NCBI GenBank assembly: GCA_964409935.1
Contig: CAYPFP010000001.1
Location: forward strand, 30,331 to 94,330
Length of the DNA stretch: 64,000 nucleotides
Reading direction: 5' to 3'
DNA from: an uncultured Planctomycetota bacterium
GTDB taxonomy: Bacteria > Planctomycetota > Brocadiia > JAADGH01 > CAYPFP01
The translations under genes were made by a program, and so were the position numbers. This document shows, piece by piece, positions 17,378-64,000 of this stretch; within the stretch, counting starts at the first letter, position 1; each line of letters begins with the position of its first letter. Below the pieces are notes generated by a model. The model saw only the letters and a program-made list of their open reading frames with translations, was not told the origin of the DNA and did no database searches.

Positions 17378-17562
17378 CTAAGCGCCTCCCCAATACGAGA
17401 AGTTGAGCGAAACGGAGTTGCAGGTATGTTCACCTGAGAGGGAGCGCAATTCAAGCAAAAACATCGCCAGGATTTTCTCTGTGCCTGACAAGGGCCGGAA
17501 TGTTATCATAAGAATTTGCGGAAAACGAGCGCATTCCGGCGCGATGCGATTCCGAGGCAGGA

Positions 17563-23353: not shown

Positions 23354-23393
23354 GGCGCGGTTCGCAGTTCATGCCAAAGGAAAAGGATCGTAG

Positions 23394-24233
23394 ATGTCGC
23401 AACTGGATGCAAGACTGGAAAAGGCAAGACACATACTCAAGGACCTGGGCAGCGTCGTCATCGCGTTCTCCGGGGGCGTGGACAGCAGCTTCCTGGCGAA
23501 GCTGGCGCACGACACCCTGGGCGACAAGGCGCTGGCGGTGACGGCCACGTCCGAGACGTATCCGTCCTTTGAGTACGAACAGGCGGTGAAGGTGGCGAAC
23601 GAGATCGGGATCGCCCAGCACACCATCCACACCGAGGAACTCTCCATCGAGGGGTTCAAGAACAATCCGCCCAACCGCTGCTACTTCTGCAAGAAGGAGC
23701 TTTTTGAGAAGCTGCTCGGCCTGGCGAAAGAGCGGGGTTTCGCGCACGTCGTGGACGGAGCGAACGCCGACGACACCGGCGACTGGCGGCCCGGCCTGCA
23801 GGCGGGGCGCGAACTGGGCGTACGCAGCCCCCTGATGGAGGCGGGGCTGACAAAACAGGATATTCGAGACCTTTCGAAACGCATGAACCTGTCCACGTGG
23901 GACAAGCCGTCGTACGCCTGCCTTTCGTCGCGGTTTCCGTACGGCAAGACGATCACGCCGGAGGCGCTCCACAAGGTTGCGCATGCGGAGGAATTCCTGC
24001 GCGGTCTGGGTTTCCGGCAGTTTCGCGTACGCCACCACGACACCATCGCGCGCATCGAGGTGGAGACGGAAGCCTTTGCGCGGATACTGGAGCCGGCGAT
24101 GCGGGAGCGAATCCTTGCGCGGTTCAAGGAGATCGGCTACACCTACGTGGCCGTGGACCTTCAGGGCTACCGCACCGGCAGCATGAACGAAGTCCTTCCG
24201 GAACGCAAAGGCGGAAAAACCCCCGCGACCTGA
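23394..24233 (+). CDS. larE: PP-loop ATP-pyrophosphatase, LarE-like sulfur transferase family
   Basis: AFSGGVDSS PP-loop, CYFCKKELF, 279 aa; matches the TIGR00268/LarE pattern. Confidence 0.75.
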   Translation: MSQLDARLEKARHILKDLGSVVIAFSGGVDSSFLAKLAHDTLGDKALAVTATSETYPSFEYEQAVKVANEIGIAQHTIHTEELSIEGFKNNPPNRCYFCKKELFEKLLGLAKERGFAHVVDGANADDTGDWRPGLQAGRELGVRSPLMEAGLTKQDIRDLSKRMNLSTWDKPSYACLSSRFPYGKTITPEALHKVAHAEEFLRGLGFRQFRVRHHDTIARIEVETEAFARILEPAMRERILARFKEIGYTYVAVDLQGYRTGSMNEVLPERKGGKTPAT

Positions 24234-24249
24234 GAAAACAGGGATTGCG

Positions 24250-27765: not shown

Positions 27766-27853
27766 GGACAGACCTCCGGTGTGCGTGCGATTACCGTGCG
27801 GTGGAAGCCATTTCATCAGAACGCGCAAACCGCGTCAAGGCAAAGTCCGGTTG

Positions 27854-33840: not shown

Positions 33841-33996
33841 CCGGCCGCGCCGGGAAGTTTGCGCCGCGGCAACACAGGTTTTTGACTTTACAGGGCAAGG
33901 TTGGTATACTATTGCGAAGTTGGTCCCTCTTGGGAACGCAATTGGAAGATTGCGTCCCAAAGGGTATTCCGTTTTCATGCATGAGGGCCTGGGAAA

Positions 33997-35934: not shown

Positions 35935-36193
35935 GCCTCTCGTTGCGTTTGAGATTGTGTGAGACCCCTTGGTGCGGCCGCCCCCCGCGGGGGCATCCGC
36001 CGGGGCCTCAGCAGGGCCGTCGCTCGCAGCGGGGGATACGGACTCCCGCAAGAAACGGTTTCCTCACACGTCCTGAGGGAGCCTGGGTCGCGAAGCCGTC
36101 TCCTTCCTCCCGGAGATCCGTGCAATATCTCCGCCCCCGAGTTTGCCCCCGCCATGAGGCAAGCGGTCTCTCGGGGCGCGGGGAGGTTTGGTT

Positions 36194-39100
36194 ATGAAAC
36201 GACTCCTGGTCCGAAAGAGGGTATGGCTCCCGCTCCTCTTTATCCTGACGGCGGGCTTGGGCGGTCCCTACCTGGCGCTCCGGCTCTTCGTAAATCCCGA
36301 AGAGATCAAGGCGACGGTGGAGCGCATGCTCAGCGAGCAGTTCGGCGGGCGCGCCCGAGTCGAACGCGTCAAGATCGGCGTCTTTCACGGGGTCGAATTG
36401 CGGGGCGTATCCGTCAGCAAGTCCGACGCCAAGGGCCTGGCGCCTTTCTTGCAGGTCAAGTCGCTCTGGCTCAAGAACTACCTCAAACCGCTGCTGAGGG
36501 GGAGATTCGTCATAGAGGAGGTGGACATTGACCAGCCCACCGTCTTTCTGACGCGCAATGCCGACGGAAGGTGGAACATCCAACAGACAACCGGGGAACC
36601 TTCCGGCGGCGGAGGCATGGCCGCTTCGGGACCGTCCGCCCTGGCCTCCCTATCCGTTCACGACGCCACCATCGAGATACGAGACCAGTACGCCGGCCAG
36701 AACTTCCCCAGTATGCGCATCCTCGGCGTCAATTTCAGCGCGATCAGCCGCGAGCCGGGGAATCTTCCTTTCACGATTACCGGCCGCATCGCCAGTTCCA
36801 TTCTCGGTCAATGCCTGGTCTCCGGTTCCCTCGACCTGGACAACGGCGTCTTCAATCTCAGCCTTTCGCGCAAGGGACTCGTCCTGGACGACGAACTTGC
36901 CAAGAACCTGCGGACGTTCCGGCCCGATCTGTTCAGGGTCCTCGGCGGCTGGCGCGGCTTGATGGACCTGCGGTTCAACCTGACCTATGACCTCATCGGC
37001 TCCGGCGGCGTCAAGTACAGGCTGATGGCCAAACTCCTGGGCGACAGCCTGACGGTCAAGGGGCTTCCGTATTCCTTTCAGAGCATCTACGGGGCCGTGA
37101 CGCTCACGGACGAGAAGCTGGTGGTGCAGAACGTGCGCGGGAGATGGGGTTCGACGCGTTTCGTGGTTGACGGCGCTCTGCCCCTGGCCAACCCCGCCGG
37201 CCGGCCGGGCATAACGGTGTCGCTCCTCAATGTTCCGCTGGACCCCCGCCTGGCCGCCCTGGCCGGGAAGGAGGTCTCGGAAGCCTGGAAAGAGTTCAAG
37301 CCCACCGGCCAGTTCGACGTTCTGTGCAGGCTCGACGGCTGCCTGTACGCGATCCGCGATCTGCGGTACCGCGCTTCCATCTTCCTCAAGGAGTGCGGTT
37401 TCTCGCATCAGCGGCTCGATGTGCCCATCGAGCGCATCAACGGCCAGATTGATGTGACACGCGAGCGCCTCCACGTGCGGCGCATGACGGCTTTGTGGAG
37501 GGGCATTCAGATCGAGATGCCGCCGGCGTCCACGCAACTGTCGGCCGATGCGCCGGTGGACTTCGTCCTTCGCCTCGCCAGCCTCCCGCTCGACGAAAAG
37601 CTCAAGGCCCTCCTGCCGCCCGACCATCGGGCCTCGTGGGACCAGTTCAGCCCGAAAGGCGTCGTCAACGCGGCCATCCACGTCCGGCGCAAGGCAGGCG
37701 CCGCCAGTCCTTTTGAGGCCACGGTGGCGCTGACCTGCGTGAAGGACTGCGAGTTCACCTACAAACAGTTTCCCCGGACCCTCCGGAACGTGCAAGGCGT
37801 GGTCGAGTTCCGGTCCGACGGCGTGGCCTTCCGCGGCGTGAAGGGGAGCGTGGGGGCCGGGAAAGTGGAGTTCGTGGACACCGTGATCCCGTTCGATCCT
37901 TGCGCCAGCTTCAACTTCGAGTTCACGGCCGCCGACATCGAGTTCGACCGGGAGTTGTACGACGCCCTCAGTCCTGAACTGAAGGCCGTCTACGACCGCA
38001 TCAACCCCTCCGGCCGCTTCGACCTGGAATGGCACCAGGAGCGCCGGCGCGGGCCGAACGCCAGGACGATCCACGACGTCGTCGTTCGCCCGCGAGGCGC
38101 CGCCGTTCTCATCAAGGACGTGCCGTATCCTCTGAACAACCTTCAGGGGACGATCCTCTATGACGGTGAAAGGATTTCGTTGGACAAACTGACGGCCCAG
38201 AACGGCCCGGCGCGCGTCGCCGTCGAGGGGCGGGTGCCGCGGTCTTCCTCCAGCGGCACCCTTCACGTTCGGGTCGCCGGCCGGAACATCCCCCTGGACG
38301 ACTCCGTGCAGAACGTCCTTCCCGAGGGCTATCAGGGGCTTTGGGGCAAGATCGAGCCGCAGGGCGCCATCCATTTCTCTCTGGAACTCAACGAGGGCAT
38401 TGACGAACTGGGCAAACCGCTTGTGCGCTACACCGTGCCGGAGCTGCGCCTCCTGAACTGCGCGGTCAGGCCGAAGGTCCCCGTGACCGGCATTCGCGGA
38501 TTGGTCAAGTTCACGGGCGAGATTCGGGAAGACCCCAGGAACTCCTGGGCCTCCGGCGAAGTGGTTCTCGACGAGGCCGTGATCGAGGGGAAGAAGTATG
38601 ACAGCGTGAACGCAACTTTCCACAACGAGCGCGACCTCATGACCTTCCCCTACATTGAGGCCCGTTGTTACGGCGGGAAAGTGGTGGGCGAACTCAAGGT
38701 GAACAAAGGCGCAAGCGTTGACAGCTCGGGCTACGAAGCCTTCTTTCGCGCGGAGAACGTCAGCGCCAGGCAAATCTGCGAGTCCGCCGGCGTCGCTCTC
38801 AAGAGCGTGGACGGCGCGATCTTCGCCGATTTCCGGGCCGAGGCCAGGTCGTGGAAGGCCGAGGACCTGAACGCCGACGGCTCTTTCCGCATATCGCAGG
38901 GGCATCTCGGCGACCTGGTCTCCATGATGGGCGTGACCGAGAAACTGAACACCGGTCCCGCCAAACCCGCGTTCACGGATGTGGATTTTGACTATATCAT
39001 CGCGGAGAACGAGGCGGTCATTGAGAAAGCTCGGCTGATCGGTCCCTCCATTAACCTGAAGGGGGAAGGCAAGATCGGCCTCGACGGCAACCTTTCGCTC

Positions 39101-39328
39101 GAGTTCCATCCGGAGCCGGGGCGGGGCGGCCCCGAGATACCCGTCGTGAGCCAGTTTGTGGGGGGGATGTTCGGCGCGGCCGTCACGATCTCCGTCACCG
39201 GCACGGTGTGGAATCCCGTGATCAAGGTGGACCCCCTCGTCCCCATCGGGAAGATGATGCTGGGTCTGTCGGAGGCCTTCGGGGCTGTCGGGAAGAAACC
39301 GAAGAAGGCCGCCCGGCCGTCCCCTTAG
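36194..39328 (+). CDS. AsmA/TamB-like large envelope protein (about 1045 aa)
   Basis: gggagg RBS 7 nt before ATG 36194; TM LPLLFILTAGLGGPYLAL; AsmA-like N-domain RVERVKIGVFHGVELRGVSVSKSDAKGLAPFLQVKSLWLKNYLKPLLRGRFVIEEVDIDQPTVFLTRNADGRWN. Confidence 0.7.
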   Translation: MKRLLVRKRVWLPLLFILTAGLGGPYLALRLFVNPEEIKATVERMLSEQFGGRARVERVKIGVFHGVELRGVSVSKSDAKGLAPFLQVKSLWLKNYLKPLLRGRFVIEEVDIDQPTVFLTRNADGRWNIQQTTGEPSGGGGMAASGPSALASLSVHDATIEIRDQYAGQNFPSMRILGVNFSAISREPGNLPFTITGRIASSILGQCLVSGSLDLDNGVFNLSLSRKGLVLDDELAKNLRTFRPDLFRVLGGWRGLMDLRFNLTYDLIGSGGVKYRLMAKLLGDSLTVKGLPYSFQSIYGAVTLTDEKLVVQNVRGRWGSTRFVVDGALPLANPAGRPGITVSLLNVPLDPRLAALAGKEVSEAWKEFKPTGQFDVLCRLDGCLYAIRDLRYRASIFLKECGFSHQRLDVPIERINGQIDVTRERLHVRRMTALWRGIQIEMPPASTQLSADAPVDFVLRLASLPLDEKLKALLPPDHRASWDQFSPKGVVNAAIHVRRKAGAASPFEATVALTCVKDCEFTYKQFPRTLRNVQGVVEFRSDGVAFRGVKGSVGAGKVEFVDTVIPFDPCASFNFEFTAADIEFDRELYDALSPELKAVYDRINPSGRFDLEWHQERRRGPNARTIHDVVVRPRGAAVLIKDVPYPLNNLQGTILYDGERISLDKLTAQNGPARVAVEGRVPRSSSSGTLHVRVAGRNIPLDDSVQNVLPEGYQGLWGKIEPQGAIHFSLELNEGIDELGKPLVRYTVPELRLLNCAVRPKVPVTGIRGLVKFTGEIREDPRNSWASGEVVLDEAVIEGKKYDSVNATFHNERDLMTFPYIEARCYGGKVVGELKVNKGASVDSSGYEAFFRAENVSARQICESAGVALKSVDGAIFADFRAEARSWKAEDLNADGSFRISQGHLGDLVSMMGVTEKLNTGPAKPAFTDVDFDYIIAENEAVIEKARLIGPSINLKGEGKIGLDGNLSLEFHPEPGRGGPEIPVVSQFVGGMFGAAVTISVTGTVWNPVIKVDPLVPIGKMMLGLSEAFGAVGKKPKKAARPSP

Positions 39329-52898: not shown

Positions 52899-53192
52899 TT
52901 ACTTCTTTTCCGCCGGCTTCTTTTCTTCCGGCTTTGCGGGGGCCGCAGGAGCCGCCGGAGCCGCAGGGGCCGCCGGGGCCGGAGTCGCCGCGGGGGCCGC
53001 CGGGGCCGGAGTCGCCGCGGGGGCCGCCGGGGCCGGAGTCGCCGCGGGGGCCGCCGGGGGCGCCTCAGGCTTGGCTTCCTTCTTCTCAGCCGCCGGCTTC
53101 TTCGGTTCCTTGGCCGGCTTCACTTCCTCACCGCATCCGACGATAAACCCTACGCCAACCGCCAACGTTAGCGCCAGCAACCACTTGTGCAT
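52899..53192 (-). CDS. Pro/Ala-rich tandem-repeat lipoprotein (97 aa)
   Basis: [23 protein letters not shown] lipobox; three-plus copies of the 9-aa repeat TPAPAAPAA encoded by a 27-bp tandem repeat; strong aaaggagg RBS. Confidence 0.6.
52960..53060. repeat. 27-bp tandem repeat (about 3.5 copies) inside the lipoprotein gene
   Basis: The unit ggccggagtcgccgcgggggccgccgg recurs at 52977, 53004, 53031 (period 27). Confidence 0.7.
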
Positions 53193-53295: not shown

Positions 53296-53342
53296 ATTGC
53301 AAAAAACCGACATGCCCGCCGCTCCCTCCGATGGCGGCGGAA
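53296..53342 (-). terminator. candidate terminator after the giant pseudopilin gene
   Basis: Minus-strand hairpin ccgccgc...gcggcgg (53316-53341) followed by ggTTTTTTgcaaTTTTTg. Confidence 0.35.
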
Positions 53343-53373: not shown

Positions 53374-56300
53374 TCAGTATTCGGTCACAAAGCGCGAGGT
53401 TTGGGCCTTTACGCCGTCGGTGACGCCGTCGGCCCCCGGTGTCGGGAGGCCGGTGGCAAGCGGCTGGGCGTTGAGATTGTTGACGATATCGGTTCGCTCG
53501 ACCAGGGCGCGGATGCGGGCCTCAGCCAGTTGGCCGCTGGGGTTGAAGACGCGCCCGCGGGCTACGACGGTGAAGAAGCGCGACTTGATGTCGAGCACGT
53601 TCCAGTACCGCGAGAACCATTCCATGCGCTCGGCGATGTCGTCGGCCAGGTCGTCGTTCAGGTAACCCGCGCCGGTGTCGTCGAAGTCCAGAGGGTTGAA
53701 CCACGATCCGGAGCCGAGGTTGATGGGGTAGTTGTAGGCGCTGTTGTCGGCGCGGCCGCCGTTGCGGATGGCGGTGGTGCCCGTTCGCACGCTCCAATCC
53801 CTCTGATAGACTCTATCCCGAAGGGTCTGGGTGTCCGAATCCGGGCTGACGTTGAACTGTCTTGGGGTCTTCAGGAGGGTGTAGAAGGCGTTGCGGGTGA
53901 AGAAGGGGTCGCCGCGCAGGACCTCGAAGTTGACGCCCAGGCCGAAGCCCTGGGGGGCGATGGGGGCCACGCCCCGGTCGCTGCGCAGGGGGAGTATGAC
54001 GTTGTTCAGCTCCGCGCTGACCGCGTTGGTGTACCGGCAGGAGGTCGGAAGGATCCTTCGGCGGAGTTCGGGGGTTTCGAGATTGATGGTGGCGTTGTCG
54101 CCGGGGGCCGGGGGCGTGCCGCTGCCGGAGAGGCCGATATATCCTGAGAATCCGCAGACGTCGAGGATGTCGCGGTAGGGGCGGTGACGGATGATGTCGG
54201 CGGCCATGGAGGTGGGGAAGACGGCGGCCAGTACGGGCATGGAGGCGGTGTTGATGTTGATCTTCGCCCGCGCGCGGCCGTGGGGCCAGACGGTGGCGAT
54301 CTCGCGCCAGTCGGGCGTTCGTTCGACCCAGGCGTAATTGGTGGTGCTGGCGGTCTGCGGTCTGGGGAAGACGGTGGGCCGCAGGTAGAGAGGCGCGGCG
54401 AAGTTGGTGCGGGCGGTCCACAGGGCGTTGCGCTGGTTCGGGATGGTGGTGTTCAGGACCCACGTCGTGAAGGGCGAGGGTCGGAAGGAGTAGTCCGTGT
54501 TCAGGGTTCCGGCGGCGTAGGTGGCGGTGAGTCCGCCGCTCAGGCCGATGAGGCGGGTGAGGATGTTGTCGTCGTAGTAGCAGGGGCCTCTGTTCTGGCC
54601 GTTGGCCGGGTTTTCCACGAAGAGGCGGGCCACGTCGTTCTCGCCGACGCGCTCTTCGGGCAGGATGGGGGCCATGTTCTTCCAAGGCCCCATCGGGGAA
54701 TGGACGAAGGCCAGCCAGCCGACGCTGGGGAAGGCGTTGTCGAGCACGACGGGGACAGTGCGATTGTCAATGGCCATGCGCAGTTCGACATGGTCCATCC
54801 AGTGGTGGTCGTTCTGGTTGCCGGGCCTTCGGGTGCCCGCGGGCAGGTCGCGGAACCAGGCAGGGGCGGAGGCCATGTCGTCCACGTGTCCGGGATAGAG
54901 GTACTTGCGGCCGAAGACGTTGCCGGCGTCATAGAAATACATGTAATTCTTGTTCCAGTTGCGCAGGCGGCGGCGGCCGGTCTCGACGTCGGGGGGGTCG
55001 TTGGTGGTGGAGGCGGGGTCGGGCCGCCAGAGGTTCCGCTGGCTGCTGCGCCACCAGAGGTTTTGGGACATGTCGTAACTGGCTGCCTGTCGCTGGAACA
55101 GGTTCGCCTTGGTGCTGTTGAAGTCGGGGTCAATCTGAAGCCATGCGGCGTTCATGCCGGCGCGGGCCTGGGGATCGGAGGCGTTGACGGGCATGAAGCG
55201 CTTCATGGAGGCGTTGGCGTGGCCGGCGTTGGGCACGACGGGGGCCGTTTTCTCGATGGCGCAGTAATCATACCGGTCCGTGGCGGCGCTGGCCTTGTCG
55301 CCGGTGGTGATGGCGGCGACCTGGCGGCTGGTGAAGTTCATGCTGGAGGCGCCGGCCCAGAGGTCAATCTCGCCGCCGGCGACCTGGAATTGCAGGGGCT
55401 GTGCGCGGCCGGGGATGGTGGGTCCCCAGATTTCGGAGCGGCCCCACACGGTGACGGGATTGCTCGTGGTTCCCTGATCGCGGTTCCAGAGTCCGAAGAG
55501 TTGGTCAATCTCCCTTATGGGGGAGGGGGGCGTCGTCGTGAAGTTGGACGGGAATTCCATGAACTGGACGGGGTAGTCCTCTTCGCCGACCCGGCCCCAG
55601 CCCACGTTGGAGATCACGTAGCCGGGCGTGGCGGCGTAGTAGTCCGAGACGGCGCCCGCGCCGAAGGTACCGCAATAGGCCGCTTCGCTGAGGGCCACGA
55701 CGTAATAGCCGAAGTTGGTGGGGAACATCCCGTCGGCGGTGGCCGGGGGGATGAAGGTGGTGGCTCTCTGTGCTCCCGCTTTGACGTCATAGAAGAGGGC
55801 GGTTTCGTTTTGGGTGGTCTTGGGGTCGTTGCCCAGCCAGAATCCGGGCCGAAGGGGACGACCGCTTCGGTCGTCGTAGAGGAAGTAATTGTTGACGTCC
55901 ACGAGACTCGGAGTAGGGGTGCGCATGACGAGCTTGAAGGCGAGCAAGCCGCCTGGCGACAGGGCCAGCGGGATGGGTTTCTTGCCGATATTGACCAGTT
56001 CCGCGTAGGGGCAGACGAAACGGAGGCTGTAGAACTTGGCGAACTTGTTGGCGACGCCGCCGGCGGGGTCCCACCGGCTGATGCCGCGGACCCTGATGAC
56101 GAAGCCGACGTTGGGGTCGGCGTCCACCCGGATGGCCATGGACTTGCGGCCGCCTCTGGGGAGGGGCTTGCCGATGCTGGGGATCGTGTTGTCGGGGTAG
56201 GTCACGAAGCCATAGATGTTGTCCACACCGGCGGACTCGTCGGTCAGGTTCACCGTGCCGGTGTTGGCGTCCTTCACCGGGACGTGGAAGCGGCGGAAGT

Positions 56301-59300
56301 TCCTGTCGCCGACGGTGAGGTTGTGGAAACCGGTCGCGGTCGGGTAGTCCAGGCCGGTGGGGGTGAGCAGGACGACGCCGTTGCGTTGGCCGGGCAGGCT
56401 GCTGCCCATGTCGGTGGCGGGGAAGCTGACGGCCAGGCTGGCGCCCTTGGGGAAGCCGTCCGGTTCGGTGCCCGTGGCGCCGACATCGTAGGATTCGCCG
56501 TAGGCCATGACGACGTAGGCCCCGCGGGGGACGCCCTTGATGCGCCACTGGCCGGTCACCTTTGCGTCCACGGGGGTGACGGGGGGAGGATTGGTTGCCG
56601 GGTTGGGCGCGCGGACGTTGAGGATGAACTCGTTGGGCGTGGCGCCCGGCTCCCACTTGGCCTCCAGGCTGAGGGGGTCGGCGAGGGCGGGCAGGAAACG
56701 AGGGGGATCTTCCGCCGCCGTGTAGCTGGCATCCACCGTTACCTCCGACGTGGGGACCGTTCGGGTCTTGCTCCTGTCGGAGCCGTGTATTTCGGGGGCG
56801 ACCATGACTTCGTTGAGGTGCACGCCCTCGACGCCGAAGATGTCCACATTCCCCGTTTGGAGCCGCTGCTGGTAGTCAGGCCAGTTCAGAGCGGTTTCGA
56901 GGTTGGGGTACGATGTGACCAGCATGGCGGGGACGGGGAAGGTGTAGTTGGAGGCGTTGTTGTCCTGGTCCTGGAAGTCCACGATGTTGGCCCACATCTG
57001 GTCGCGCAGGATGCGGCCAAGCGTGGCGACGGGGTCGGTGGTGGTGTCCGTGGCGTCATAGGATGCCGGCTGGCCGACGAGGGTGTAGGGCCTGGCGATG
57101 CCGAGGGGCTGGAAGCTGGGGTCGGATTCGGGGACGGGGGGGACGTAAACGCCGTCGCCGGAGGATTGGTCCGTGGGGGCGCAGCGCATGGCGGGGAAGA
57201 AATACTGGTTGCTGCCCAGGCGCAGGGCGATGGTGTCCACATAACCGGCGTTGCTGTATTCGAGGCCGCCCGTGATCCGGCCGGCGCCGAAGGCGCGGCG
57301 GAAGGCGCGTTTCAGCCGGGCCACCTTCTCGGCGCCGTTGAGGGGCCTGGTGTCCTCTTCCGGGGGGTTGGCGCCGCCGATCCAACTGGTGGGCGGGTCG
57401 TACTCGCCCTGCTGGACGCGGGCGGGGTAAGGAGGGTTGGAGAAGGTGCGGGTGACCGAAAGGCTGGAGTCGGTGGCGTTCTGGGAGACCACGATGCCGT
57501 TAATGGCGTTGCTCTGGTCGGCGCGCCGCCAGCCGTTTTGAGAGCGGGGGATGTCAATGCGGCCATTGTTGTCGTTGTCCATCTGGTCGGAATGCCAGAG
57601 GTCCACGTTGATGTTCACCTTGCCGGTATCGTGGTCGGCGACGGAGACGGAGATGTCTTCGCGCACGATGCTGAAGACGCGGGAGGCCTCGGCATAGAGG
57701 TCGCCGATGTCCAGGATGGGCGTGGTGGGGTTGCCGCTGGCGTCGAGGCGGGTGGGGTCGAAGTCGCCGTTGACGTTGACGGCGACGTTGCCGCTGTTGT
57801 TGAGGATGTAACCGACGCCGAGCCGCTGGCCGATGGTGGCCTGTCCTCTGCTGCCGACCCAGGCGTCATTGGTGGGGAAGGGGGCGGCGGCGCGGCCGCC
57901 GGTAGCGCCCCAGACGAGGGCGTCAATCATCTGCTCGATGGCGGTGTAGGGGCGGTCGTCGCCGCGGGGGTAGACGGGGTCGAACTCGCGGTCGTCGTCA
58001 ATGCCCTCGATGGTTCCGCTGGCGCCGAGGGGGTAAGGCTCGTCCACGAATTGACTGGTAGTGCGGTCGTGCGGCTCCCAAAACCGTTGGGAAGGGTTCG
58101 CGCCCATCATGAAGTTGGGCACGCCGTCGTTGAAGCCCACGTTGAAATTGACGTTGGCGTTGGCGGTGGGGAATCCGATGCCCTTGTCGAGGGTGTTGGC
58201 GCCGACGACGGCGTTCCAGTTGCCGTTGTCGTCCAGGCCGTTCTCGCGGACCAGGAGGCGGCGCCTGTTGTAGATGTCCCAATCCGTCAACGTTCCGGCG
58301 GCGGGGACGTCGTGGTCGCTGTCGTCATCCACGTTGCGGCGGCCGGGGAAGAGGTCCTGGCCGTAGCGGTAGAGGATGATGGCGCGGGCGAAGCCGCGGG
58401 CCTGGGTGACGGTGAAGCCGTAGGCCTCGAAGAAGCGCACGAGGCTGACGCGGAAGGAGTCGAGCTTCATGGTGGCGTCGAGGGCGCCGTTGGCGGCGTA
58501 GAAGGCGGGGTCCCACAGGCTGCCGTGGGCGTTGAGGTTGATCTTTCCTCCCTCGTCGAGGATCATGCCCTCCACGTCGTTGCCGTCGCTGAGTTCAAGG
58601 TCGGGCAGGGCGCTGGAGAGCGCGCCGCCGGTGGTCCGATATCGGCCATCGGAGTCCTCGTCGTCGTCCTGGGCGTTGCCGCCCAGGCGGCCGCCGGCGT
58701 AGCTGACGAAGTTGGTGCGGGGTGCGCTGGCCGTTGGCACGGGGTTTCCGGTCCAAAGGGGGTAGTAACCGTCGGCGGTCTGGCCGTCGTCGTCGGTGTC
58801 ATTGGCGATATTGCGGGTGTAAACGCCGCCGGTCAGGTTGGCGTCCACGCGTTTGAGGCCCAGGTTGCCGGCGCCCATGTCGCGCAGGTCGCCGAAGCCC
58901 TCCTCCCAGACGCGGCCGTCGTTGTCCGAGGTCACGTTCTGGGTCTGGCCGTTAACATTGTCCAGAATATAGTTCCAGCTGGTTGGCGGTACGCGCGCTA
59001 GCCATATCCAGGGTTCGACTCGGCCGGCGGCGACGGTGGTGTTGGTCTGGTAAACGTATTGGAAACTCTTGCCGGCTTGGTTTTCGTTGCCCATCTGGTC
59101 GCCGCTGAAGAGGTCGTCGTTGGCGAGATTGTTGTAGTAGGAGGCGTCCCAGAAGTTGCGGGTGCGGGCGGTGTCCTTGTAGGTCATGGCCGCTGTGCGG
59201 TTGAGAGTTCTGTTGAAGTAGCTGCGGCCGTCGGGAATTCCGGGGTCTTCGTTGGGAAAGCCGTCGCCGTCGGAGTCGGCGAGCATGTTGTTGTCTTCGT

Positions 59301-59976
59301 CCACCTGGCCGTCGCGGTCGTCGTCTACGTTGGGGGCGCCGGGGCGGCCGTCCTGGTCGGGGGTGAAGCCGTCCTCGTCCACGAGGGGAGTCAGGCCGAG
59401 GGCGTTGCGCTGGTCGCGGTCCTCGTCATCGTCGGAGGCGTTGCCGCCGGGGTTGTAGCCGGGGGTGCCGGCGGTGTAGCCGTTGATGTCCTCGTCTATT
59501 TTGCCGTCGCCGTCGTCGTCAATGCCCTGGATGCCGGGATAGCCGTCGGCATTGTCGTCGCCGGGGGGGTCTTCGTTGATGTGCCAGTTGAGGTCGTAGC
59601 AGGCGCGGCGGTTGCCGTCGTTGTAGACGAGTTTGTGATAGGGGTTGGCGGCGGGCTGGTTGTTGTTGCCCTGTGAGCGATTCCAGGTGGGCTGAAGCAC
59701 GCCGCTCGTGTTGGTGGGGCAGGGCGGCGTGAACCAGGCCTCGGAGAAGTCGTCGAAGCGGGGGTCGTCCTTGGACAGGATCTCGATGGCGGCCTGAAGG
59801 CCTTCCCTGGCGGCGAACTCGGCGATCTGGCGGTCGGTCAGCGTGCGGCTGCCGGCCAGTTCGGTGCGGGAGATGAGGGCGAAGGTGACGCCCATGAGCG
59901 CCAGCACGGCCAGTACGCCGACGGCGACGATCAGGATGGAACCTCGTTGGCGGGGTCCGTCGGAATTGTAGTTCAT
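53374..59976 (-). CDS. giant GspK-like minor pseudopilin (about 2200 aa) with thrombospondin-type-3-like Asp-rich Ca-binding repeats
   Basis: N-terminus RQRG|SILIVAVGVLAVLALMGVTFALISRTELAGSRTLTDRQIAEFAAREGLQAAIEIL matches the GspK/T2SS-K N-terminal helix (Gly at -1, no Glu5); DEGGKINLN motif typical of the GspK family; DDDGDGKIDEDINGY, DDRDGQVDEDNN, DSDGDGFPNEDPG, DDDEDSDGRY repeats; ggaagga RBS before ATG 59976. Confidence 0.8.
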   Translation of the reverse strand: MNYNSDGPRQRGSILIVAVGVLAVLALMGVTFALISRTELAGSRTLTDRQIAEFAAREGLQAAIEILSKDDPRFDDFSEAWFTPPCPTNTSGVLQPTWNRSQGNNNQPAANPYHKLVYNDGNRRACYDLNWHINEDPPGDDNADGYPGIQGIDDDGDGKIDEDINGYTAGTPGYNPGGNASDDDEDRDQRNALGLTPLVDEDGFTPDQDGRPGAPNVDDDRDGQVDEDNNMLADSDGDGFPNEDPGIPDGRSYFNRTLNRTAAMTYKDTARTRNFWDASYYNNLANDDLFSGDQMGNENQAGKSFQYVYQTNTTVAAGRVEPWIWLARVPPTSWNYILDNVNGQTQNVTSDNDGRVWEEGFGDLRDMGAGNLGLKRVDANLTGGVYTRNIANDTDDDGQTADGYYPLWTGNPVPTASAPRTNFVSYAGGRLGGNAQDDDEDSDGRYRTTGGALSSALPDLELSDGNDVEGMILDEGGKINLNAHGSLWDPAFYAANGALDATMKLDSFRVSLVRFFEAYGFTVTQARGFARAIILYRYGQDLFPGRRNVDDDSDHDVPAAGTLTDWDIYNRRRLLVRENGLDDNGNWNAVVGANTLDKGIGFPTANANVNFNVGFNDGVPNFMMGANPSQRFWEPHDRTTSQFVDEPYPLGASGTIEGIDDDREFDPVYPRGDDRPYTAIEQMIDALVWGATGGRAAAPFPTNDAWVGSRGQATIGQRLGVGYILNNSGNVAVNVNGDFDPTRLDASGNPTTPILDIGDLYAEASRVFSIVREDISVSVADHDTGKVNINVDLWHSDQMDNDNNGRIDIPRSQNGWRRADQSNAINGIVVSQNATDSSLSVTRTFSNPPYPARVQQGEYDPPTSWIGGANPPEEDTRPLNGAEKVARLKRAFRRAFGAGRITGGLEYSNAGYVDTIALRLGSNQYFFPAMRCAPTDQSSGDGVYVPPVPESDPSFQPLGIARPYTLVGQPASYDATDTTTDPVATLGRILRDQMWANIVDFQDQDNNASNYTFPVPAMLVTSYPNLETALNWPDYQQRLQTGNVDIFGVEGVHLNEVMVAPEIHGSDRSKTRTVPTSEVTVDASYTAAEDPPRFLPALADPLSLEAKWEPGATPNEFILNVRAPNPATNPPPVTPVDAKVTGQWRIKGVPRGAYVVMAYGESYDVGATGTEPDGFPKGASLAVSFPATDMGSSLPGQRNGVVLLTPTGLDYPTATGFHNLTVGDRNFRRFHVPVKDANTGTVNLTDESAGVDNIYGFVTYPDNTIPSIGKPLPRGGRKSMAIRVDADPNVGFVIRVRGISRWDPAGGVANKFAKFYSLRFVCPYAELVNIGKKPIPLALSPGGLLAFKLVMRTPTPSLVDVNNYFLYDDRSGRPLRPGFWLGNDPKTTQNETALFYDVKAGAQRATTFIPPATADGMFPTNFGYYVVALSEAAYCGTFGAGAVSDYYAATPGYVISNVGWGRVGEEDYPVQFMEFPSNFTTTPPSPIREIDQLFGLWNRDQGTTSNPVTVWGRSEIWGPTIPGRAQPLQFQVAGGEIDLWAGASSMNFTSRQVAAITTGDKASAATDRYDYCAIEKTAPVVPNAGHANASMKRFMPVNASDPQARAGMNAAWLQIDPDFNSTKANLFQRQAASYDMSQNLWWRSSQRNLWRPDPASTTNDPPDVETGRRRLRNWNKNYMYFYDAGNVFGRKYLYPGHVDDMASAPAWFRDLPAGTRRPGNQNDHHWMDHVELRMAIDNRTVPVVLDNAFPSVGWLAFVHSPMGPWKNMAPILPEERVGENDVARLFVENPANGQNRGPCYYDDNILTRLIGLSGGLTATYAAGTLNTDYSFRPSPFTTWVLNTTIPNQRNALWTARTNFAAPLYLRPTVFPRPQTASTTNYAWVERTPDWREIATVWPHGRARAKININTASMPVLAAVFPTSMAADIIRHRPYRDILDVCGFSGYIGLSGSGTPPAPGDNATINLETPELRRRILPTSCRYTNAVSAELNNVILPLRSDRGVAPIAPQGFGLGVNFEVLRGDPFFTRNAFYTLLKTPRQFNVSPDSDTQTLRDRVYQRDWSVRTGTTAIRNGGRADNSAYNYPINLGSGSWFNPLDFDDTGAGYLNDDLADDIAERMEWFSRYWNVLDIKSRFFTVVARGRVFNPSGQLAEARIRALVERTDIVNNLNAQPLATGLPTPGADGVTDGVKAQTSRFVTEY
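59240..59640 (-). repeat. region encoding Asp-rich calcium-binding (TSP3-like) repeats in the giant gene
   Basis: Clusters of gacgac/gatgac codons on the coding strand; protein motifs DxDxDGxxD. Confidence 0.5.
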
Positions 59977-60009
59977 CAGACTTGTTCCTTCCAGGGGCGG
60001 TAACAAACA

Positions 60010-60047
60010 GGTTTCGGGTTTCTGGTTTCTGGTGCCTGGTTATCTGG
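60010..60047. repeat. array of 7-bp tandem repeats (GGTTTCG/GGTTTCT x5)
   Basis: GGTTTCG GGTTTCT GGTTTCT GGTGCCT GGTTATC; reverse complement of the array at 60489-60540; overlaps the stop codon of the four-helix-bundle gene. Confidence 0.8.
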
Positions 60048-60450
60048 CAGATTCGGTAGTTTTCTTGTACTTGAGACCCTTTATCTGCGAAACACGAAGA
60101 TAGCGCATCAATCCGGCGATCATCCGGCCGGTTCTGCGCGTCAGGGCATACAAATCCTGGAAGACGTCCGGCTCGACATATTCCTGGTCCAAAGCGACGT
60201 ACAACTGGCTAGCGACTTCGCCCGAGGAGGCCGTGGCGTTGGAGAGGAATTGGAGAAACTCCTTGTTTCCGTCTCGCTCAAACCCTTCGGCAATATTGGA
60301 CATAATGGATATGCAGGCTCTGCGAATCTGGTCACGAAGCGCGTAATCCTTGGAGAACGCGCCCTGATTGGAAACCTTATAGATGTCACGGCTCAGTTCC
60401 CGCGCCGTCTGCCAGGCTTCTATGTCCTCAAATCTCTTGAAGGTAGCCAT
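60040..60450 (-). CDS. four-helix-bundle protein (23S rRNA intervening-sequence protein family, TIGR02436-like)
   Basis: 136 aa; MATFKRFEDIEAWQTARELSRDIYKVSN...ALRDQIRRACISIMSNIAEGFER...EFLQFLSNATASSGEVASQLYVALDQEY is the characteristic pattern; lower GC than its flanks. Confidence 0.8.
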   Translation of the reverse strand: MATFKRFEDIEAWQTARELSRDIYKVSNQGAFSKDYALRDQIRRACISIMSNIAEGFERDGNKEFLQFLSNATASSGEVASQLYVALDQEYVEPDVFQDLYALTRRTGRMIAGLMRYLRVSQIKGLKYKKTTESAR

Positions 60451-60488: not shown

Positions 60489-60540
60489 CCCGAAACCCGA
60501 AACCCGAAACCAGAAACCCTAAACCCGAAACCCGAAACCT
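60489..60540. repeat. array of 7-bp tandem repeats (CGAAACC x7 with variants)
   Basis: CGAAACC CGAAACC CGAAACC AGAAACC CTAAACC CGAAACC CGAAACC; begins 3 nt after the pseudopilin stop. Confidence 0.8.
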
Positions 60541-60543
60541 CCG

Positions 60544-61578
60544 TCACAAATCCCCCCTCCGGGGTCCCAGCGCCTTGATGTAGGAGGGGATGAAGATGAC
60601 CTGGCGGAAGACTATGCCGACCTCGTCCACGCGGAAGTCGGCCTGCTTCAGGCCGTCGCCGGGGTAGTCGTCGGTTCGACCGGGAGCGAGGAACTGGGCT
60701 CTGGGCCGGGGTTCGTCGCGTCCGTCGGTGATTTCCGTGGAGTAAAAGTCCGTCCATTCGTATTCGTTGGGGTCGGCGATGCGCAGGGTGACCTGGACGG
60801 CGGCGGGGATGCGGGCGCGAGCGGCCTGGTCGCTGTCGAAGGCCCAGGACGTGTTGGCTCCGGCGCCGGAACGATTCACCAGGTTGTAGGCCATGCCTCG
60901 CGTCGGCGGCCAGAAGTCGAACCAGTGCGTTTCTCTCTCGCCGCTCAGCCAGACTCGCTGGTCGGAGTTCTGATTGAAGCCGTCCACCTGGTAGTACCGC
61001 AACTGGAATTCGCGCACGTTGAAGCCCAGGGCGCTGAAGTCAAAGCGGGGCGAGGGGTTCGCGGGGGTGGGGTCGTGGACGAGGACGGCGGCAAGGTCGG
61101 CCGCCGTGGTCGGCCCGGTGAGGAGTCGGCGCGAGACGCCTTTTTCCAGGACGTGGCGGCCGGTGACGCAGTAGACGACCTCGACGGGGGTGCCGAAGTT
61201 GGAGGATTCGGTGGTGGTGCGGAACCAGAGCATGTCGGGGTAGCAGTAGGGGACGCTGGTCCTGCTGGTGTCGCACAGGATGTTGAAGAACGGGACGCGC
61301 GGCACCCAGGTGCTGGAGTAGGTGTAGGCGCGGTTCCAGCCGATGAAGACGTTGCCGCTCTCGTCCACGACGGCGCCTTGCAGGTCGCGCTGCATGGTGT
61401 CAACGATGGCGCGGACCGTCTGGTAGATGGCGATGCGGGCGTCGGCGCTCGAGAGCATGTTTCCGGCGCTGCTGAAGATGGTGTAGAGCATGATGGTGAT
61501 GATGGTCATGAGGCCGGCGGCGACGGTGAGTTCGACGAGGGTGAACGCCGCGGCGGCCTTTGATTTGAGTTTCTTCAT
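60544..61578 (-). CDS. prepilin-type N-terminal cleavage/methylation domain protein (GspJ-like minor pseudopilin, 344 aa)
   Basis: KAAAAFTLVELTVAAGLMTIITIML N-terminus (FTLxE core, Ala at -1). Confidence 0.75.
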   Translation of the reverse strand: MKKLKSKAAAAFTLVELTVAAGLMTIITIMLYTIFSSAGNMLSSADARIAIYQTVRAIVDTMQRDLQGAVVDESGNVFIGWNRAYTYSSTWVPRVPFFNILCDTSRTSVPYCYPDMLWFRTTTESSNFGTPVEVVYCVTGRHVLEKGVSRRLLTGPTTAADLAAVLVHDPTPANPSPRFDFSALGFNVREFQLRYYQVDGFNQNSDQRVWLSGERETHWFDFWPPTRGMAYNLVNRSGAGANTSWAFDSDQAARARIPAAVQVTLRIADPNEYEWTDFYSTEITDGRDEPRPRAQFLAPGRTDDYPGDGLKQADFRVDEVGIVFRQVIFIPSYIKALGPRRGDL

Positions 61579-61643: not shown

Positions 61644-63017
61644 TCAGAAGAACGACGAGATGGTGCTTGTCGAGACGCCGATGAGCGTCTGCGGCGACTG
61701 GTCCTGTATCGTCCGCATATGGTTATAGTTGAGGAAGACCAGCACGTCCACGCGGGCGCCGAGGGGAACGGAGGCTTCCTTGCCCCTGCGGGCCGGTTCG
61801 GGGGAGAAGGCGTCGCGGGGGATGGGGATCGGCGCTATGGCCCAGGCGTTGACGTTTGCGTTGACGTCTTCGGAATTGCTCATGATGATGGCGTAGGAAT
61901 ACGAGGAGCCGGCGATGGTGGCTTCGGGGTCGTTGAGCCAGTCTTTGCGGTTGGCGCCGAAGGGGATGGTCTGGTCCGGTTCCGCGTTGCCTGCGCCGAA
62001 GTTCGAGGCGGTGGGCCTGCCGGTCACGGCGTCGGGAGGGCCGAAGGGGAAGACGGCGCTGACTTCCCTGGCGCCCAGGATGACGAAGCTGTCGTTGCGG
62101 CGCACGCGTCCGTTCAGGGCGTCGCCGGTGTTGAGCCAGTTGTTGTTGGCCGGCTCGGCGGCGCTGAAAATGCCGCGGGTGACGTTGACGCTGCTGGCGG
62201 TGTTGGAGGTGACGGGGAGCACCTTGCCCTTGGCCAGGCCGCTGGTGAAGACGACGAAGAAACGGGCGTCCACGCCGGCGGCGGCGCCGGTTCTGGAGAA
62301 CTCGTTGGGGGTCCAGTTGACATAGCCGGTGGTTCCGAAGTTATCGTCCGCCGCGTCCATCCGCTTGGCCGTGATGCTGTTGCCGGAGGCGGAGACGACG
62401 CGCGCCATGCGGGGACTGCCGGGGGAGCGCGGCAAGGCCCACTTGGTGATGACGAAGCACGAGCTGTTGTCCAGCGGCATGGGGCGGTTGAGAGGGTCGA
62501 GGAAGGGAGAGCTGACCGTGACATGGAAGGAGGCCGCATAGGCCATGGAGGTGCTGTCAATCCTCCGGACCTGGCCGGCGCCCGTGCCGGAGGTCACCAG
62601 CAGGTAGTGGCCCGCCCGGCTGGTGTACATGAAGGGGTACTGGGCCTGCGCGCGCCAGTCCACGCCCGCTCCGGAGGCGGCGCCGGGGCTGATCTCGCAG
62701 TAGACGGTGGTGGGGGTCTGCGTGATGGCGGTGGAGTTGGCGGCGACGCGGTACCAGGGATTTCGCAGGCGGTAGTCGAAGACCTCGCTGGTGTTCACCA
62801 TGTAGTTGACTTGCGCGAAGGCCGTTTGCGAGGCCAGGTAGACGACCTTGTTGTTGATGGCGCGCGTGGTGGCATCGAGTCCCACGGGGAACAGGGACAT
62901 GACGCCCACGATGCCCAGGACCATGATGAACATGGCGATGAGGATTTCGGTGAGCGTAAAGCCCGCGGCCGCCGTGGTTTTCGCTTGTCGGTTCATTGGC
63001 ATCTTTCGTTCTTGCAT
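61644..63017 (-). CDS. prepilin-type N-terminal cleavage/methylation domain protein (expanded minor pseudopilin, 457 aa)
   Basis: TAAAGFTLTEILIAMFIMVLGIVGV is a canonical G|FTLxE prepilin signal. Confidence 0.8.
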   Translation of the reverse strand: MQERKMPMNRQAKTTAAAGFTLTEILIAMFIMVLGIVGVMSLFPVGLDATTRAINNKVVYLASQTAFAQVNYMVNTSEVFDYRLRNPWYRVAANSTAITQTPTTVYCEISPGAASGAGVDWRAQAQYPFMYTSRAGHYLLVTSGTGAGQVRRIDSTSMAYAASFHVTVSSPFLDPLNRPMPLDNSSCFVITKWALPRSPGSPRMARVVSASGNSITAKRMDAADDNFGTTGYVNWTPNEFSRTGAAAGVDARFFVVFTSGLAKGKVLPVTSNTASSVNVTRGIFSAAEPANNNWLNTGDALNGRVRRNDSFVILGAREVSAVFPFGPPDAVTGRPTASNFGAGNAEPDQTIPFGANRKDWLNDPEATIAGSSYSYAIIMSNSEDVNANVNAWAIAPIPIPRDAFSPEPARRGKEASVPLGARVDVLVFLNYNHMRTIQDQSPQTLIGVSTSTISSFF

Positions 63018-63072: not shown

Positions 63073-63894
63073 TCACATCACCTGCACGACCCCGCCGGTC
63101 TGGGGGAAGAAGATGATCCATGCGCCGCCGGCGAAGATGGGCGCGCCGGTCGAATGGGGGCGGTTGGGGGTGTACTTTCCGCGTTCCACGACGAGGAACG
63201 CCCGCCGCCCGTTGTTTTCGAACTGGATGCTCGTGACGTACATGATCTCGTCGTCAATGAGGATGTAGCCCGTGGCCTCGATGCTGTGGCTGGTGCTGAT
63301 CTCGATGCGCGTCTGGAAGGCGTCTACATCGCCCAGGAGCGCGCCGACCGTGCCGCCGCCGACGGATGTGACGATGCCGCCGGTGGGCTTTGCGTAGCGA
63401 GAGGCGGCCTCCGCCTTGACATCGGTGACGTACTTGCCCGTGCCGTCCTTGTCGAAGGTGAGGACCATGACGGGGCGGGCGCCGTTGGAGTAGCCGGCCT
63501 GGATGGCGGCGGTGTTGTCGCCGATGGCTCTGGAGAGATTGACGTCGCGTCTCCAGTGGTTATCGGGGACGCGGAAGGTGATGCCTTCGGGGAGGACGAC
63601 GGGGGCGTCCACCGGCACGTATTGAGAGTCGGTCACGACGCAGAACCGTTCGCCATGGTAGACGATGAGAGAAGCGGTGGAGTTGGTGGCGATGGCGTGA
63701 TGGCGGGCCTGGAGCGTGGCGGCGTGGAGCTGGCGTGCCGCATGGCGCTCCCGGCTGCGGCTGATCATGGGGCTGGTCGCCACGATGGAGACGAGGGCGA
63801 GCAGGATGACGATGCCGATGACGGTGAGCATCTCGGCCAGCGTAAAGGCTTGGTCGCGTCGGCGGTACGGCATCGCGATTCGATCCATTTTCAT
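63073..63894 (-). CDS. GspH-like pseudopilin
   Basis: gcaggagg RBS then ATG AAA ATG; RRRDQAFTLAEMLTVIGIVILLALVSIV...SRERHAARQLHAATLQARHHAIA resembles GspH. Confidence 0.75.
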   Translation of the reverse strand: MKMDRIAMPYRRRDQAFTLAEMLTVIGIVILLALVSIVATSPMISRSRERHAARQLHAATLQARHHAIATNSTASLIVYHGERFCVVTDSQYVPVDAPVVLPEGITFRVPDNHWRRDVNLSRAIGDNTAAIQAGYSNGARPVMVLTFDKDGTGKYVTDVKAEAASRYAKPTGGIVTSVGGGTVGALLGDVDAFQTRIEISTSHSIEATGYILIDDEIMYVTSIQFENNGRRAFLVVERGKYTPNRPHSTGAPIFAGGAWIIFFPQTGGVVQVM

Positions 63895-63908
63895 TGCAGC
63901 CTCCTGCA

Positions 63909-64000
63909 TTATCTGCTTCCCCAGTTATTTACATCATCGGCGGCTTCGCCGAGCATATTCAGTTCGGGGGCGTCGTCCACCGCGCCGTTCATGTCGTCGT
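63909..64000 (-). CDS. 3' end of an upstream gene of the same operon (partial)
   Basis: In-frame ...DDMNGAVDDAPELNMLGEAADDVNNWGSR then TAA (63911-63909), followed directly by the RBS of the GspH-like gene. Confidence 0.35.
   Translation of the reverse strand, partial: DDMNGAVDDAPELNMLGEAADDVNNWGSR

Follow-up and report, generated by a model that had tools for sequence, protein, structure and literature searches.

A 2200-residue GspK/PilK-like protein of an uncultured Planctomycetota bacterium is very probably a minor pilin with a fold interrupted by nested insertions

Proteins of the GspK/PilK type act as caps and primers of type IV filaments in all of their major classes, and members such as GspK and XcpX are only about 300-330 amino acids (aa) long. 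What, then, is a GspK-like protein of 2200 aa? This question is raised by a gene on the minus strand of a 64,000-nucleotide stretch of DNA from an uncultured Planctomycetota bacterium (contig CAYPFP010000001.1 of assembly GCA_964409935.1; hereafter "the window"), which an initial annotation had described from its sequence as a hyper-expanded GspK-type pseudopilin fused to thrombospondin type-3-like (TSP3-like) calcium-binding repeats. Our analysis leaves little doubt that this giant is a K-position (GspK/PilK/PilX-family) minor pilin with a fold that is split by nested insertions. As a whole, it is with fair but clearly lower confidence best explained as the K-position minor pilin of a type IV filament machine with a tip head built in by these insertions, and an adhesive or ligand-capturing role at the tip seems somewhat probable. 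The coding sequence and the four pieces of its GspK core are arranged as follows:

53374..59976, minus strand: complete coding sequence of the giant, a GspK/PilK-like protein of 2200 aa, with stop codon (open reading frame list and translation)
59737..59976, minus strand: leader, prepilin-like cleavage site between G12 and S13 and hydrophobic alpha1 without Glu5, aa 1-80 (sequence and profile)
58297..58581, minus strand: second part of the GspK core, an ILDEGGKINLN strand and a subdomain resembling the first helix-hairpin-helix, HhH1 (SFRVSLVRFF...RYGQDLFPG...DDDSD), aa 466-560 (spliced match)
54142..54300, minus strand: third part of the GspK core, the second HhH subdomain (HhH2) RAKININTASMPVLAAVFPTSMAADIIRHRPYRDILDV, aa 1893-1945 (T2SSK/GspK profile matches)
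53377..53637, minus strand: fourth part of the GspK core, a helix and three closing beta-strands at aa 2134-2145, 2148-2162 and 2188-2197 (structure model and relative)

The N-terminus reads MNYNSDGPRQRG up to the predicted cleavage site and SILIVAVGVLAVLALMGVTFALIS behind it, with ...PRQRG immediately before the cut; position -1 is Gly and position +5 is Val. This arrangement, RQRG/SILIVAVGVLAVLALMG (the slash marks cleavage), has what defines a GspK N-terminus, namely a leader of class III type with Gly as its last residue, followed by a hydrophobic alpha1 that lacks Glu at +5; the three pilin-like proteins encoded upstream, by contrast, all carry Glu5 (FTLAE, FTLTE and FTLVE). Alpha1 (aa 13-80) is followed by a conserved D-x-x-x-x-W-F/Y-T-P motif, and the whole region is kept across the family described below. 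The DEGGKINLN motif occupies aa 474-482, with further KINLN-type motifs at aa 786 (KVNINV) and aa 1905 (KININTAS), and the motifs of the second core part are near-invariant in 10 family members. All landmarks are collinear with those of E. coli K-12 GspK, which we list here before their counterparts in the giant: QRG/VALLIVL and QRG/SILIVAV at the cleavage site; YWAQP and AWFTP; LRDAQHCFNLNAL and ILDEGGKINLNAH; FSALLINAG...IADYIDVDD and SLVRFFEAYG...ILYRYGQD...DDDSD; SINLNML...LLQKRP and KININTAS...IIRHRP; and finally SRYFTLSTES...HIFFNR...IYRRTLQLY and SRFFTVVARG...RIRALVER...TSRFVTEY. The canonical order of alpha1, WxxP, FNLN strand, HhH1 with its acidic loop, INxNTA-HhH2 and closing strands is therefore preserved, and the final strand forms the extreme C-terminus (...KAQTSRFVTEY) in a pattern that resembles the C-terminus of E. 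coli GspK.

Profile searches recover the same pieces. The only direct GspK matches of the native full-length protein sit near its C-terminus at aa 1893-1945, where Pfam T2SSK (PF03934) matches aa 1906-1945 (E 1.2e-4, 22.8 bits) and NCBIfam T2SS_GspK (NF037980) matches aa 1893-1936 with positions 203-246 of its 307 positions (E 9.8e-7, 28.6 bits). Matches at this end of the protein place the extra mass inside the GspK fold and not behind it. When aa 1-575 were searched alone, aa 10-84 matched positions 1-79 of the GspK model (E 0.0022). We then scored a construct in which aa 1-90, 466-575, 1885-1960 and 2090-2200 were joined in silico: the NCBIfam GspK model matched this spliced protein with an E-value of 2e-12 and 47.3 bits, still below its equivalog cut-off of 130 bits, and Pfam T2SSK matched it with 25.5 bits, over its gathering score of 24.2. 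In the spliced protein, aa 10-108 form one contiguous match to model positions 1-105 that runs unbroken through helix, WFTP motif and ILDEGGKINLN, and the matches to positions 1-105 and 203-247 keep the same order in giant and model. Judged by this alignment, the KINLN motif of the giant is the FNLN strand of GspK. By comparison, when a family alignment of 3 sequences was run against E. coli GspK with hhalign, no more than 13 columns at the N-terminus could be aligned, as local alignment does not bridge the insertions.

The GspK fold is very probably spread over the whole giant in four pieces that are separated by three insertions with a total of around 1900 residues. The hyper-expanded GspK-type minor pseudopilin of the initial annotation, its N-terminus with Gly at -1 and no Glu5, and its reading of DEGGKINLN as a motif of the family are all confirmed by these results, and its expectation of a T2SSK/GspK match around the N-terminus and the KINLN motif holds weakly for the native sequence and well once the spliced construct and the relatives are considered. 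What had been described as an N-terminal GspK followed by a tail of about 1600 aa has to be redrawn as nested insertions in one pilin fold, with HhH2 and the closing strands at the C-terminus.

Proteins of this kind are rare. A word-indexed search of 5.8 billion proteins returned the giant itself, two homologues (1691 and 1907 aa) and one fragment (three proteins with the full-length query, one with the last 321 aa), while pattern scans found one genome locus (L004, from a metagenome-assembled genome of a Planctomycetota bacterium) and two metagenome loci. For an exhaustive HMMER search of 1.84 billion representatives, we built the profile from the last 1200 aa; it gave 85 matches: 5 close family members (1691-2200 aa, plus fragments), around 35 large ones (1000-2060 aa, E-values from 1e-34 to 1e-15) and around 40 small ones. 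The small matches (200-430 aa) were considered as ordinary GspKs and rejected since they are ComEA-like HhH repeat proteins, and we do not count them as evidence for GspK. The giant's family is thus rare and unannotated, with 5 close and about 35 distant representatives in that search, and the closest relative is a protein of 1979 aa (locus L011). Split pilins escape domain-based annotation, and the protein identical to the giant in NCBI-derived data (P0001) has neither a name nor a precomputed Pfam domain. We also encountered other enlarged and unannotated GspK-like proteins, some of 770-980 aa with a lamin-tail and HhH domain and an NCBI protein of 2153 aa with 22 cluster members, all with sub-threshold GspK matches. 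Our literature searches turned up no account of giant GspK-like proteins from Planctomycetota or other bacteria of the Planctomycetes-Verrucomicrobia-Chlamydiae (PVC) group.

These relatives strengthen the assignment. The GspK model matched 12 of the 32 large relatives that were scanned (best E 1.6e-17) and Pfam T2SSK matched 8 of them, including P0007 (1128 aa) above threshold at aa 978-1030. In P0007, the GspK model positions 2-135 also match aa 21-152, and the split layout is therefore a family trait. Searched against the PDB, a profile of 32 family proteins found only GspK (3CI0_K, E 0.004) and XcpX (5VTM_X, E 0.01), both over the HhH2 region at aa 1893-1945, where an earlier search with a 3-sequence alignment had returned only PsbU/ComEA HhH noise (E>0.3). 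Outside insertion 1, the N-terminal half has blocks common to the wider family in our alignment A5, namely IxDExxKxNLNAxG, SFxxSLxR, RYGxDxxPG, DDRxYxSxxE, VNINxDxWxxDGxDNDxDG, ANIVDFxDxD and GxEGVHLNEVM.

Structure prediction points in the same direction. P0007 was modelled with AlphaFold2 from a 32-sequence alignment (mean predicted local distance difference test score, pLDDT, 70; predicted template modelling score, pTM, 0.74), and the model matches the GspK fold: a long helix (H19-79), the FNLN strand and a helical subdomain are followed by a poorly predicted stretch, then by a core of good confidence that includes a beta-jelly-roll region, by another helical subdomain and by three long C-terminal strands that reach the terminus. 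These strands (E1079-1090, E1093-1107 and E1116-1125) correspond to aa 2134-2145, 2148-2162 and 2188-2197 of the giant. For the giant itself, aa 1001-2200 were modelled with 39 sequences, and the model is confident for the VHLNEVM strand, for a region rich in beta-strands at around 1105-1430, for HhH2 at 1905-1940 and for the closing strands. The first two of these strands form a block with pLDDT values of up to 89, the third is predicted as well, and HhH2 together with the three terminal strands are the best-predicted parts of the model and map onto the GspK-fold strands of P0007.

The inserted mass is composed of different kinds of modules:

58582..59724, minus strand: insertion 1, acidic with DxDxDG-type motifs, aa 85-465, around 390 aa (motif map)
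54301..58296, minus strand: insertion 2, around 1330 aa within the GspK alpha-domain between the HhH subdomains, aa 561-1892 (no Pfam family)
57553..57630, minus strand: block D-T-G-K-V-N-I-N-V-D-L-W...D-N-D-N-N-G-R-I-D within insertion 2, aa 783-808, with a second strand of the KINLN type and, behind it, a loop of the DxDxDG type
55687..56664, minus strand: beta-rich region with a jelly-roll fold like that of carbohydrate-binding modules (CBMs) within insertion 2, aa ~1105-1430 (CBM-like fold matches)

Insertion 1 is confined to the 5 close relatives and appears as a gap in the wider family in alignment A5. It carries around 8 DxDxDG-like motifs that cluster at aa 140-250 and 390-445, and D-x-D-x-D-G-x-x-D-type motifs bind Ca2+ in many structural contexts, so these loops probably bind calcium. 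The Asp-rich stretch between helix and KINLN that the initial annotation had noted is therefore present, but it spans about 390 instead of about 450 aa and is no tandem repeat array; self-BLASTP found no internal repeats anywhere in the giant. Likeness to TSP3 exists at the level of these motifs only, without a regular repeat or the TSP3 pattern of Cys residues, and the suggested homology fails: no Pfam family matched insertion 1 with E<=10 when aa 120-260 and aa 85-470 were scanned alone, including TSP_3 (PF02412) and the bacterial TSP3 profile. Insertion 2 is homologous to insertions of 600-1000 aa in the roughly 35 large relatives, with conserved blocks DDRxY, VNINxDxW-DxDNDxxG, ANIVDFxDxD and GxEGVHLNEVM, and no sub-segment of it matched any Pfam family. 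In the block at aa 783-808, the columns I789, N790, W794, D797, D800, N801, G805 and D808 are near-invariant across close and wider family. A zinc-ribbon-like CxxC...CPFCG insert lies inside the central insertion of two close relatives (L004 ~12000-12200 and the equivalent site of P0005) and is missing from the giant of the window, which makes the central insertion itself a hotspot for further module gain. Insertion 3 comprises around 170 aa ahead of the closing strands.

Compared to GspK/XcpX (3CI0 chain K and 5VTM chain X; PF03934/PF21687; NF037980), the giant is about 7 times longer, adding 390 aa before the KINLN strand, around 1330 aa between the HhHs and around 170 aa before the closing strands; it also stays below the curated scores of this group, and its related operons contain PilT with no GspC, GspD, GspL or GspM seen. 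Its functional analogue in type IVa pili is the pair of PilK/PilX and PilC/PilY1, in which the apical K minor pilin bears a calcium-dependent adhesin of 1000-3500 aa (PMC13533445). PilK-family proteins lack Glu5 and are apical, and it takes a C-terminal strand to complete their beta-sheet, which comes in trans from PilC/PilY1 or is supplied in cis by GspK, CpaL and other homologues with large internal insertions; as recent work shows, fibre assembly is licensed by this completion (PMC13533445). The giant has the predicted strand and the large mass in one polypeptide, in cis. Homology to PilY1, which the initial annotation had evoked, did not materialize, with no match to the PilY1/PilC beta-propeller (PF05567) for the full giant at E<0.1 or its sub-segments at E<=10, and we saw no gene for a stand-alone PilY1 behind the cassette in the window, L009, L011 or L008. 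The principle that the giant probably follows, with a pilin-like N-terminal part, a large middle module presumed to lie atop the tip and a strand at the extreme C-terminus that returns to the sheet, is found in CpaL/TadG of Tad pili, ComZ of Thermus and PilX of V. cholerae competence pili (PMC13533445). These CpaL/ComZ-type proteins have around 550-600 aa with one insertion of up to ~470 aa (a beta-solenoid in ComZ; PMC8179133), whereas the giant has around 1900 residues at three sites, keeps the GspK alpha-domain and contains modules without sequence relation to theirs. Modular pilins such as S. sanguinis PilB with its vWA module likewise show a module on a pilin carrier, probably at the tip, but in the 2021 InterPro survey they have an identifiable domain appended and reach 860 aa at most, while the unannotated modules of the giant are nested and the protein is 2.5 times larger (PMC8179133).

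One large protein family of PVC bacteria deserved separate consideration. Verru_Chthon cassette protein A (TIGR02600; 1296 positions, cut-off 332 bits), from the pilin-like cassettes of four genes in Verrucomicrobia/Chthoniobacter, is by its TIGRFAMs description a very large protein in a PVC cassette with three prepilin-type proteins, and the H-, I- and J-like proteins of the window show weak matches to Verru_Chthon cassette proteins D, B and C, respectively. We rejected this identity for the giant: the native protein has no match to TIGR02600 at E<0.1, and matches of the spliced protein (E 0.02) and of 4 of the 32 relatives (best E 9e-8) cover the N-terminal helix only. By sequence comparison, the giant's family is separate from cassette protein A.

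The genomic context of the giant is that of a K-position protein, with three minor pilin genes upstream:

63073..63909, minus strand: GspH/ComGD-like minor pilin, 278 aa, FTLAE (NCBIfam ComGD E 2.5e-9; weak GspH match)
61644..63017, minus strand: GspI/PilV-like minor pilin, 457 aa, FTLTE (weak N-terminal PilV and GspI matches)
60544..61578, minus strand: GspJ/PilW-like minor pilin, 344 aa, FTLVE with Glu5 (weak matches to N_methyl and the N-terminus of Verru_Chthon cassette protein C)

The order H-I-J-K with the giant last in the cassette is found in the window, L004 and L011, and the H-, I- and J-like proteins share 27%, 26% and 25% identity, respectively, with the products of the syntenic L004 genes, where the J-like gene lies directly 5' of the giant. 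The I-like protein is itself oversized (457 aa compared to ~120 aa for GspI) and carries the sequence GTGAGQVRRI. Its module G-x-G-Q-V/T-R-R-I recurs one to several times in the insertions of the wider giant-GspK family and also at L004 7528-8769, and this recurrence suggests a small common domain that may decorate several tip subunits. The I-position protein of L008 shows a weak match to the phage BR0599 domain (E 8e-4).

Which machine does this cassette serve? In L004, the cassette is preceded by a partial T2SSE ATPase, and the locus also encodes a PilB/GspE-like ATPase with an MshE-type motif for binding cyclic di-GMP (c-di-GMP; 58 bits, cut-off 38), a GspF/PilC protein and three GspG-like pilins. 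Loci of wider-family giants (L008, L009 and, from its gene list only, P0089) add an ATPase of 387-402 aa that matches T2SSE only, and the one that was tested, from L008, belongs to the PilT/PilU family (TIGR01420, 459 bits, cut-off 319). Secretin, GspC, GspL, GspM and PilY1 were not seen in any of the retrieved flanks of related loci (within 10 kb). A neighbour of P0002 joins N_methyl with DUF1559, a pairing typical of Planctomycetes. The combination of PilT with an MshE-type extension ATPase in related loci makes a retractable, c-di-GMP-controlled pilus likelier than a classical secretion piston.

The alternative that survives best, though we consider it unlikely, is that the giant is the tip pseudopilin of a true type II secretion system (T2SS) with a short periplasmic pseudopilus that stays inside the cell. 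Its insertions would then work in the periplasm and not as an external adhesin; they might, for example, recruit or push large exoproteins that degrade polysaccharides, or plug the channel. The profile and structure matches of the giant are indeed all to T2SS GspK/XcpX and none to PilX of type IVa pili. In related loci, the candidate major pilins match GspG at the N-terminus, and the platform protein has its best score, by a narrow margin, as GspF; moreover, a secreted-enzyme gene of the Pel9A-like/PKD/CBM6-35 type lies two genes past the giant of L008, and glycoside-hydrolase-like genes are plentiful in the window. This reading has to contend with a bona fide PilT/PilU-family retraction ATPase beside the extension ATPase in related loci, with an extension ATPase whose score as PilB slightly exceeds its score as GspE and which has the c-di-GMP motif, and with GspC, D, L and M not being seen in any retrieved flank. 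A head of 200 kDa on a periplasmic piston is also without precedent, and the known large insertions of PilK homologues belong to surface pili that have no separate adhesin (PMC13533445).

More remote, and in our view very unlikely, is a GspK-derived protein that has left filament work altogether and persists as a large inner-membrane-anchored periplasmic or surface protein with a leftover pilin-like anchor. Sub-threshold scores with the GspK models and the extreme size would fit this idea, and so would a foreign gene between the J-like gene and the giant that could uncouple the latter from its cassette. However, distant relatives keep alpha1, the KINLN strand, both HhHs and the three closing strands to the last residues, synteny of H-I-J-K is kept in L004, L011, L008 and L009, and the foreign gene is not found in relatives. 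The window thus has the order H-like, I-like, J-like, foreign gene and giant, while L004 and L011 lack the foreign gene. It encodes a four-helix-bundle "23S rRNA intervening-sequence protein" (60040-60450, minus strand; PF05635 E 1.4e-33; TIGR02436) and differs from its neighbours in the GC content at third codon positions (GC3; 0.66 compared to 0.88-0.89). The gene is bracketed by a 33-nt inverted repeat of GGTTTCG heptamers (60009-60041 and 60508-60540; 85% complementary), and the same junction of J-like gene and giant in L004 is without it. The segment 60009-60540 looks like a mobile cassette of the intervening-sequence type that was inserted in the operon, and its 33-nt stem could be an RNase III site.

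The reading frame itself is real and its codon bias host-like. It starts with an ATG at 59976, preceded by a Shine-Dalgarno-like GGAAGGA 9 nt further 5' (another in-frame TTG lies upstream at 60006), and runs uninterrupted to the stop at 53374-53376. The GC content of its codon positions is 0.61/0.48/0.89 (GC3 exactly 0.887), within the GC3 range of 0.80-0.91 of trusted window genes (Hsp70, phosphoenolpyruvate carboxykinase and an ATP-binding cassette, ABC, transporter). The plus-strand open reading frame at 54184..59001 shows the mirror of this pattern (GC1 0.89, GC3 0.61) and is for this reason an antisense shadow, which bears out the minus-strand assignment of the initial annotation, and it is the minus-frame product that is conserved in homologues. 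The operon ends shortly behind the giant:

53308..53321, minus strand: terminator-like hairpin with T-run, 50 nt past the giant's stop (consensus scan)

Although long spurious open reading frames arise on both strands of GC-rich genomes, the notion of a decaying or non-expressed frame or annotation artefact is effectively refuted by 6.6 kb of open frame with the GC3 of real genes opposite a shadow-patterned antisense frame, by the Shine-Dalgarno-like motif and terminator, and by motifs in collinear order with homologues that share 27-40% identity along the entire protein.

The genes past this site are unrelated to the giant: one for a small lipoprotein that has a promoter to itself, a URO-D-like one and one for an ABC transporter. 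The Pro/Ala/Lys-rich lipoprotein-like frame (~52939-53191, minus strand) has a lipobox and a 27-nt tandem repeat of 4.6 copies (52936-53064) encoding (APAATPAPA)n; a near-consensus sigma-70-like promoter (TTGACA-17-TATACT, 53288-53260) lies ahead of it and a hairpin behind it. Elsewhere in the window, three AsmA/DUF748/YhdP-like genes (1479, 483 and 1046 aa) on the plus strand at 27972-39328, with a gene for a tetratricopeptide repeat protein between the second and third, suggest an outer-membrane lipid-transport locus. Genes related to polysaccharides at 20978-27828 and 10811-17377 encode a GH2-like protein, a PcRGLX-like protein of 1192 aa resembling rhamnogalacturonan lyases, a glucuronyl-esterase-like protein and DUF5696, consistent with a glycan-degrading lifestyle. 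In L008, the protein encoded two genes past the GspK-like gene (the 1128-aa relative) is a Pel9A-like beta-helix/PKD/CBM6-35 protein of 1091 aa (14155-17430) and a possible substrate or partner of the giant GspK-like protein, which bears on the choice between secretion and capture.

How would a minor pilin of this size work? Most likely, the giant is an apical priming subunit that shows a calcium-stabilised binding head, and it is placed at the apex because it is a K protein without Glu5. It would be exported, cut by prepilin peptidase and held in the inner membrane by alpha1. The three C-terminal strands, including the last ~10 residues, would close the pilin beta-sheet in cis only after the full 2200-aa chain has been made and folded. 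These closing strands lie far behind their predicted partners, the block at aa 2134-2162 by around 1650 residues and the final strand by around 1700, so that assembly would be licensed only once the whole head is exported and folded. In known systems, the completed sheet is recognised by a preformed I-J dimer and fibre growth follows (PMC13533445); here, an I-J dimer would likewise recognise it to form an I-J-K(-H) priming complex from which the fibre polymerises. The inserted mass of ~200 kDa would then ride the fibre tip as a built-in head composed of acidic DxDxDG loops, probably with bound Ca2+, the CBM-like jelly roll and ~800 aa of unknown fold. This head would most likely bind a surface or polymer ligand, with polysaccharide as our best guess, and the adhesive tip proposed by the initial annotation is plausible. 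The giant would thus combine in one polypeptide the tasks that PilK and PilY1/PilC share in type IVa pili, as CpaL does for Tad pili.

Several observations weigh against this reading of the giant as a filament-capping minor pilin with a built-in head. The native protein scores under the curated cut-off of each GspK model (22.8 compared to 24.2 bits and 28.6 compared to 130 bits). The whole GspK fold is seen only in the model of P0007, a distant relative (E 4e-34 to the family profile, ~30% identity to the giant), and the model of the giant's own aa 1001-2200 is poor (mean pLDDT 48.8, pTM 0.52). Binding of calcium and ligand is deduced from motifs only. ATPases, platform protein, major pilin, prepilin peptidase and any secretin lie outside the window, which ends at 64000, and the type of machine is taken from relatives. 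Finally, a head of ~200 kDa would have to pass an outer-membrane channel or sit outside of it, and no secretin was found in the retrieved flanks.

As a K-position minor pilin, the giant takes the cis-strand solution, a principle that experiments have only lately established, to an extreme: a fold of 300 residues is interrupted at three sites by around 1900 more. This makes it a natural test of the cargo load that the pilin fold and a filament tip can bear and gives a way to ask how a head of ~200 kDa is mounted and passes the outer membrane with the pilus. In the most far-reaching version, which taken jointly is distinctly unlikely, the giant is the largest pilin-fold protein found described in this analysis and merges the PilK priming subunit with a PilY1-sized head on a PilT-retractable, c-di-GMP-controlled pilus of Planctomycetota, forming a calcium-stiffened, CBM-bearing "harpoon" for polysaccharides. 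Crateriform structures of planctomycetes bear pili-like fibres that bind dextran (PMC5394234). If the harpoon were real, the giant would be a molecular candidate for these dextran-binding fibres and as such a concrete gene for the polymer-binding fibres of Planctomycetota.

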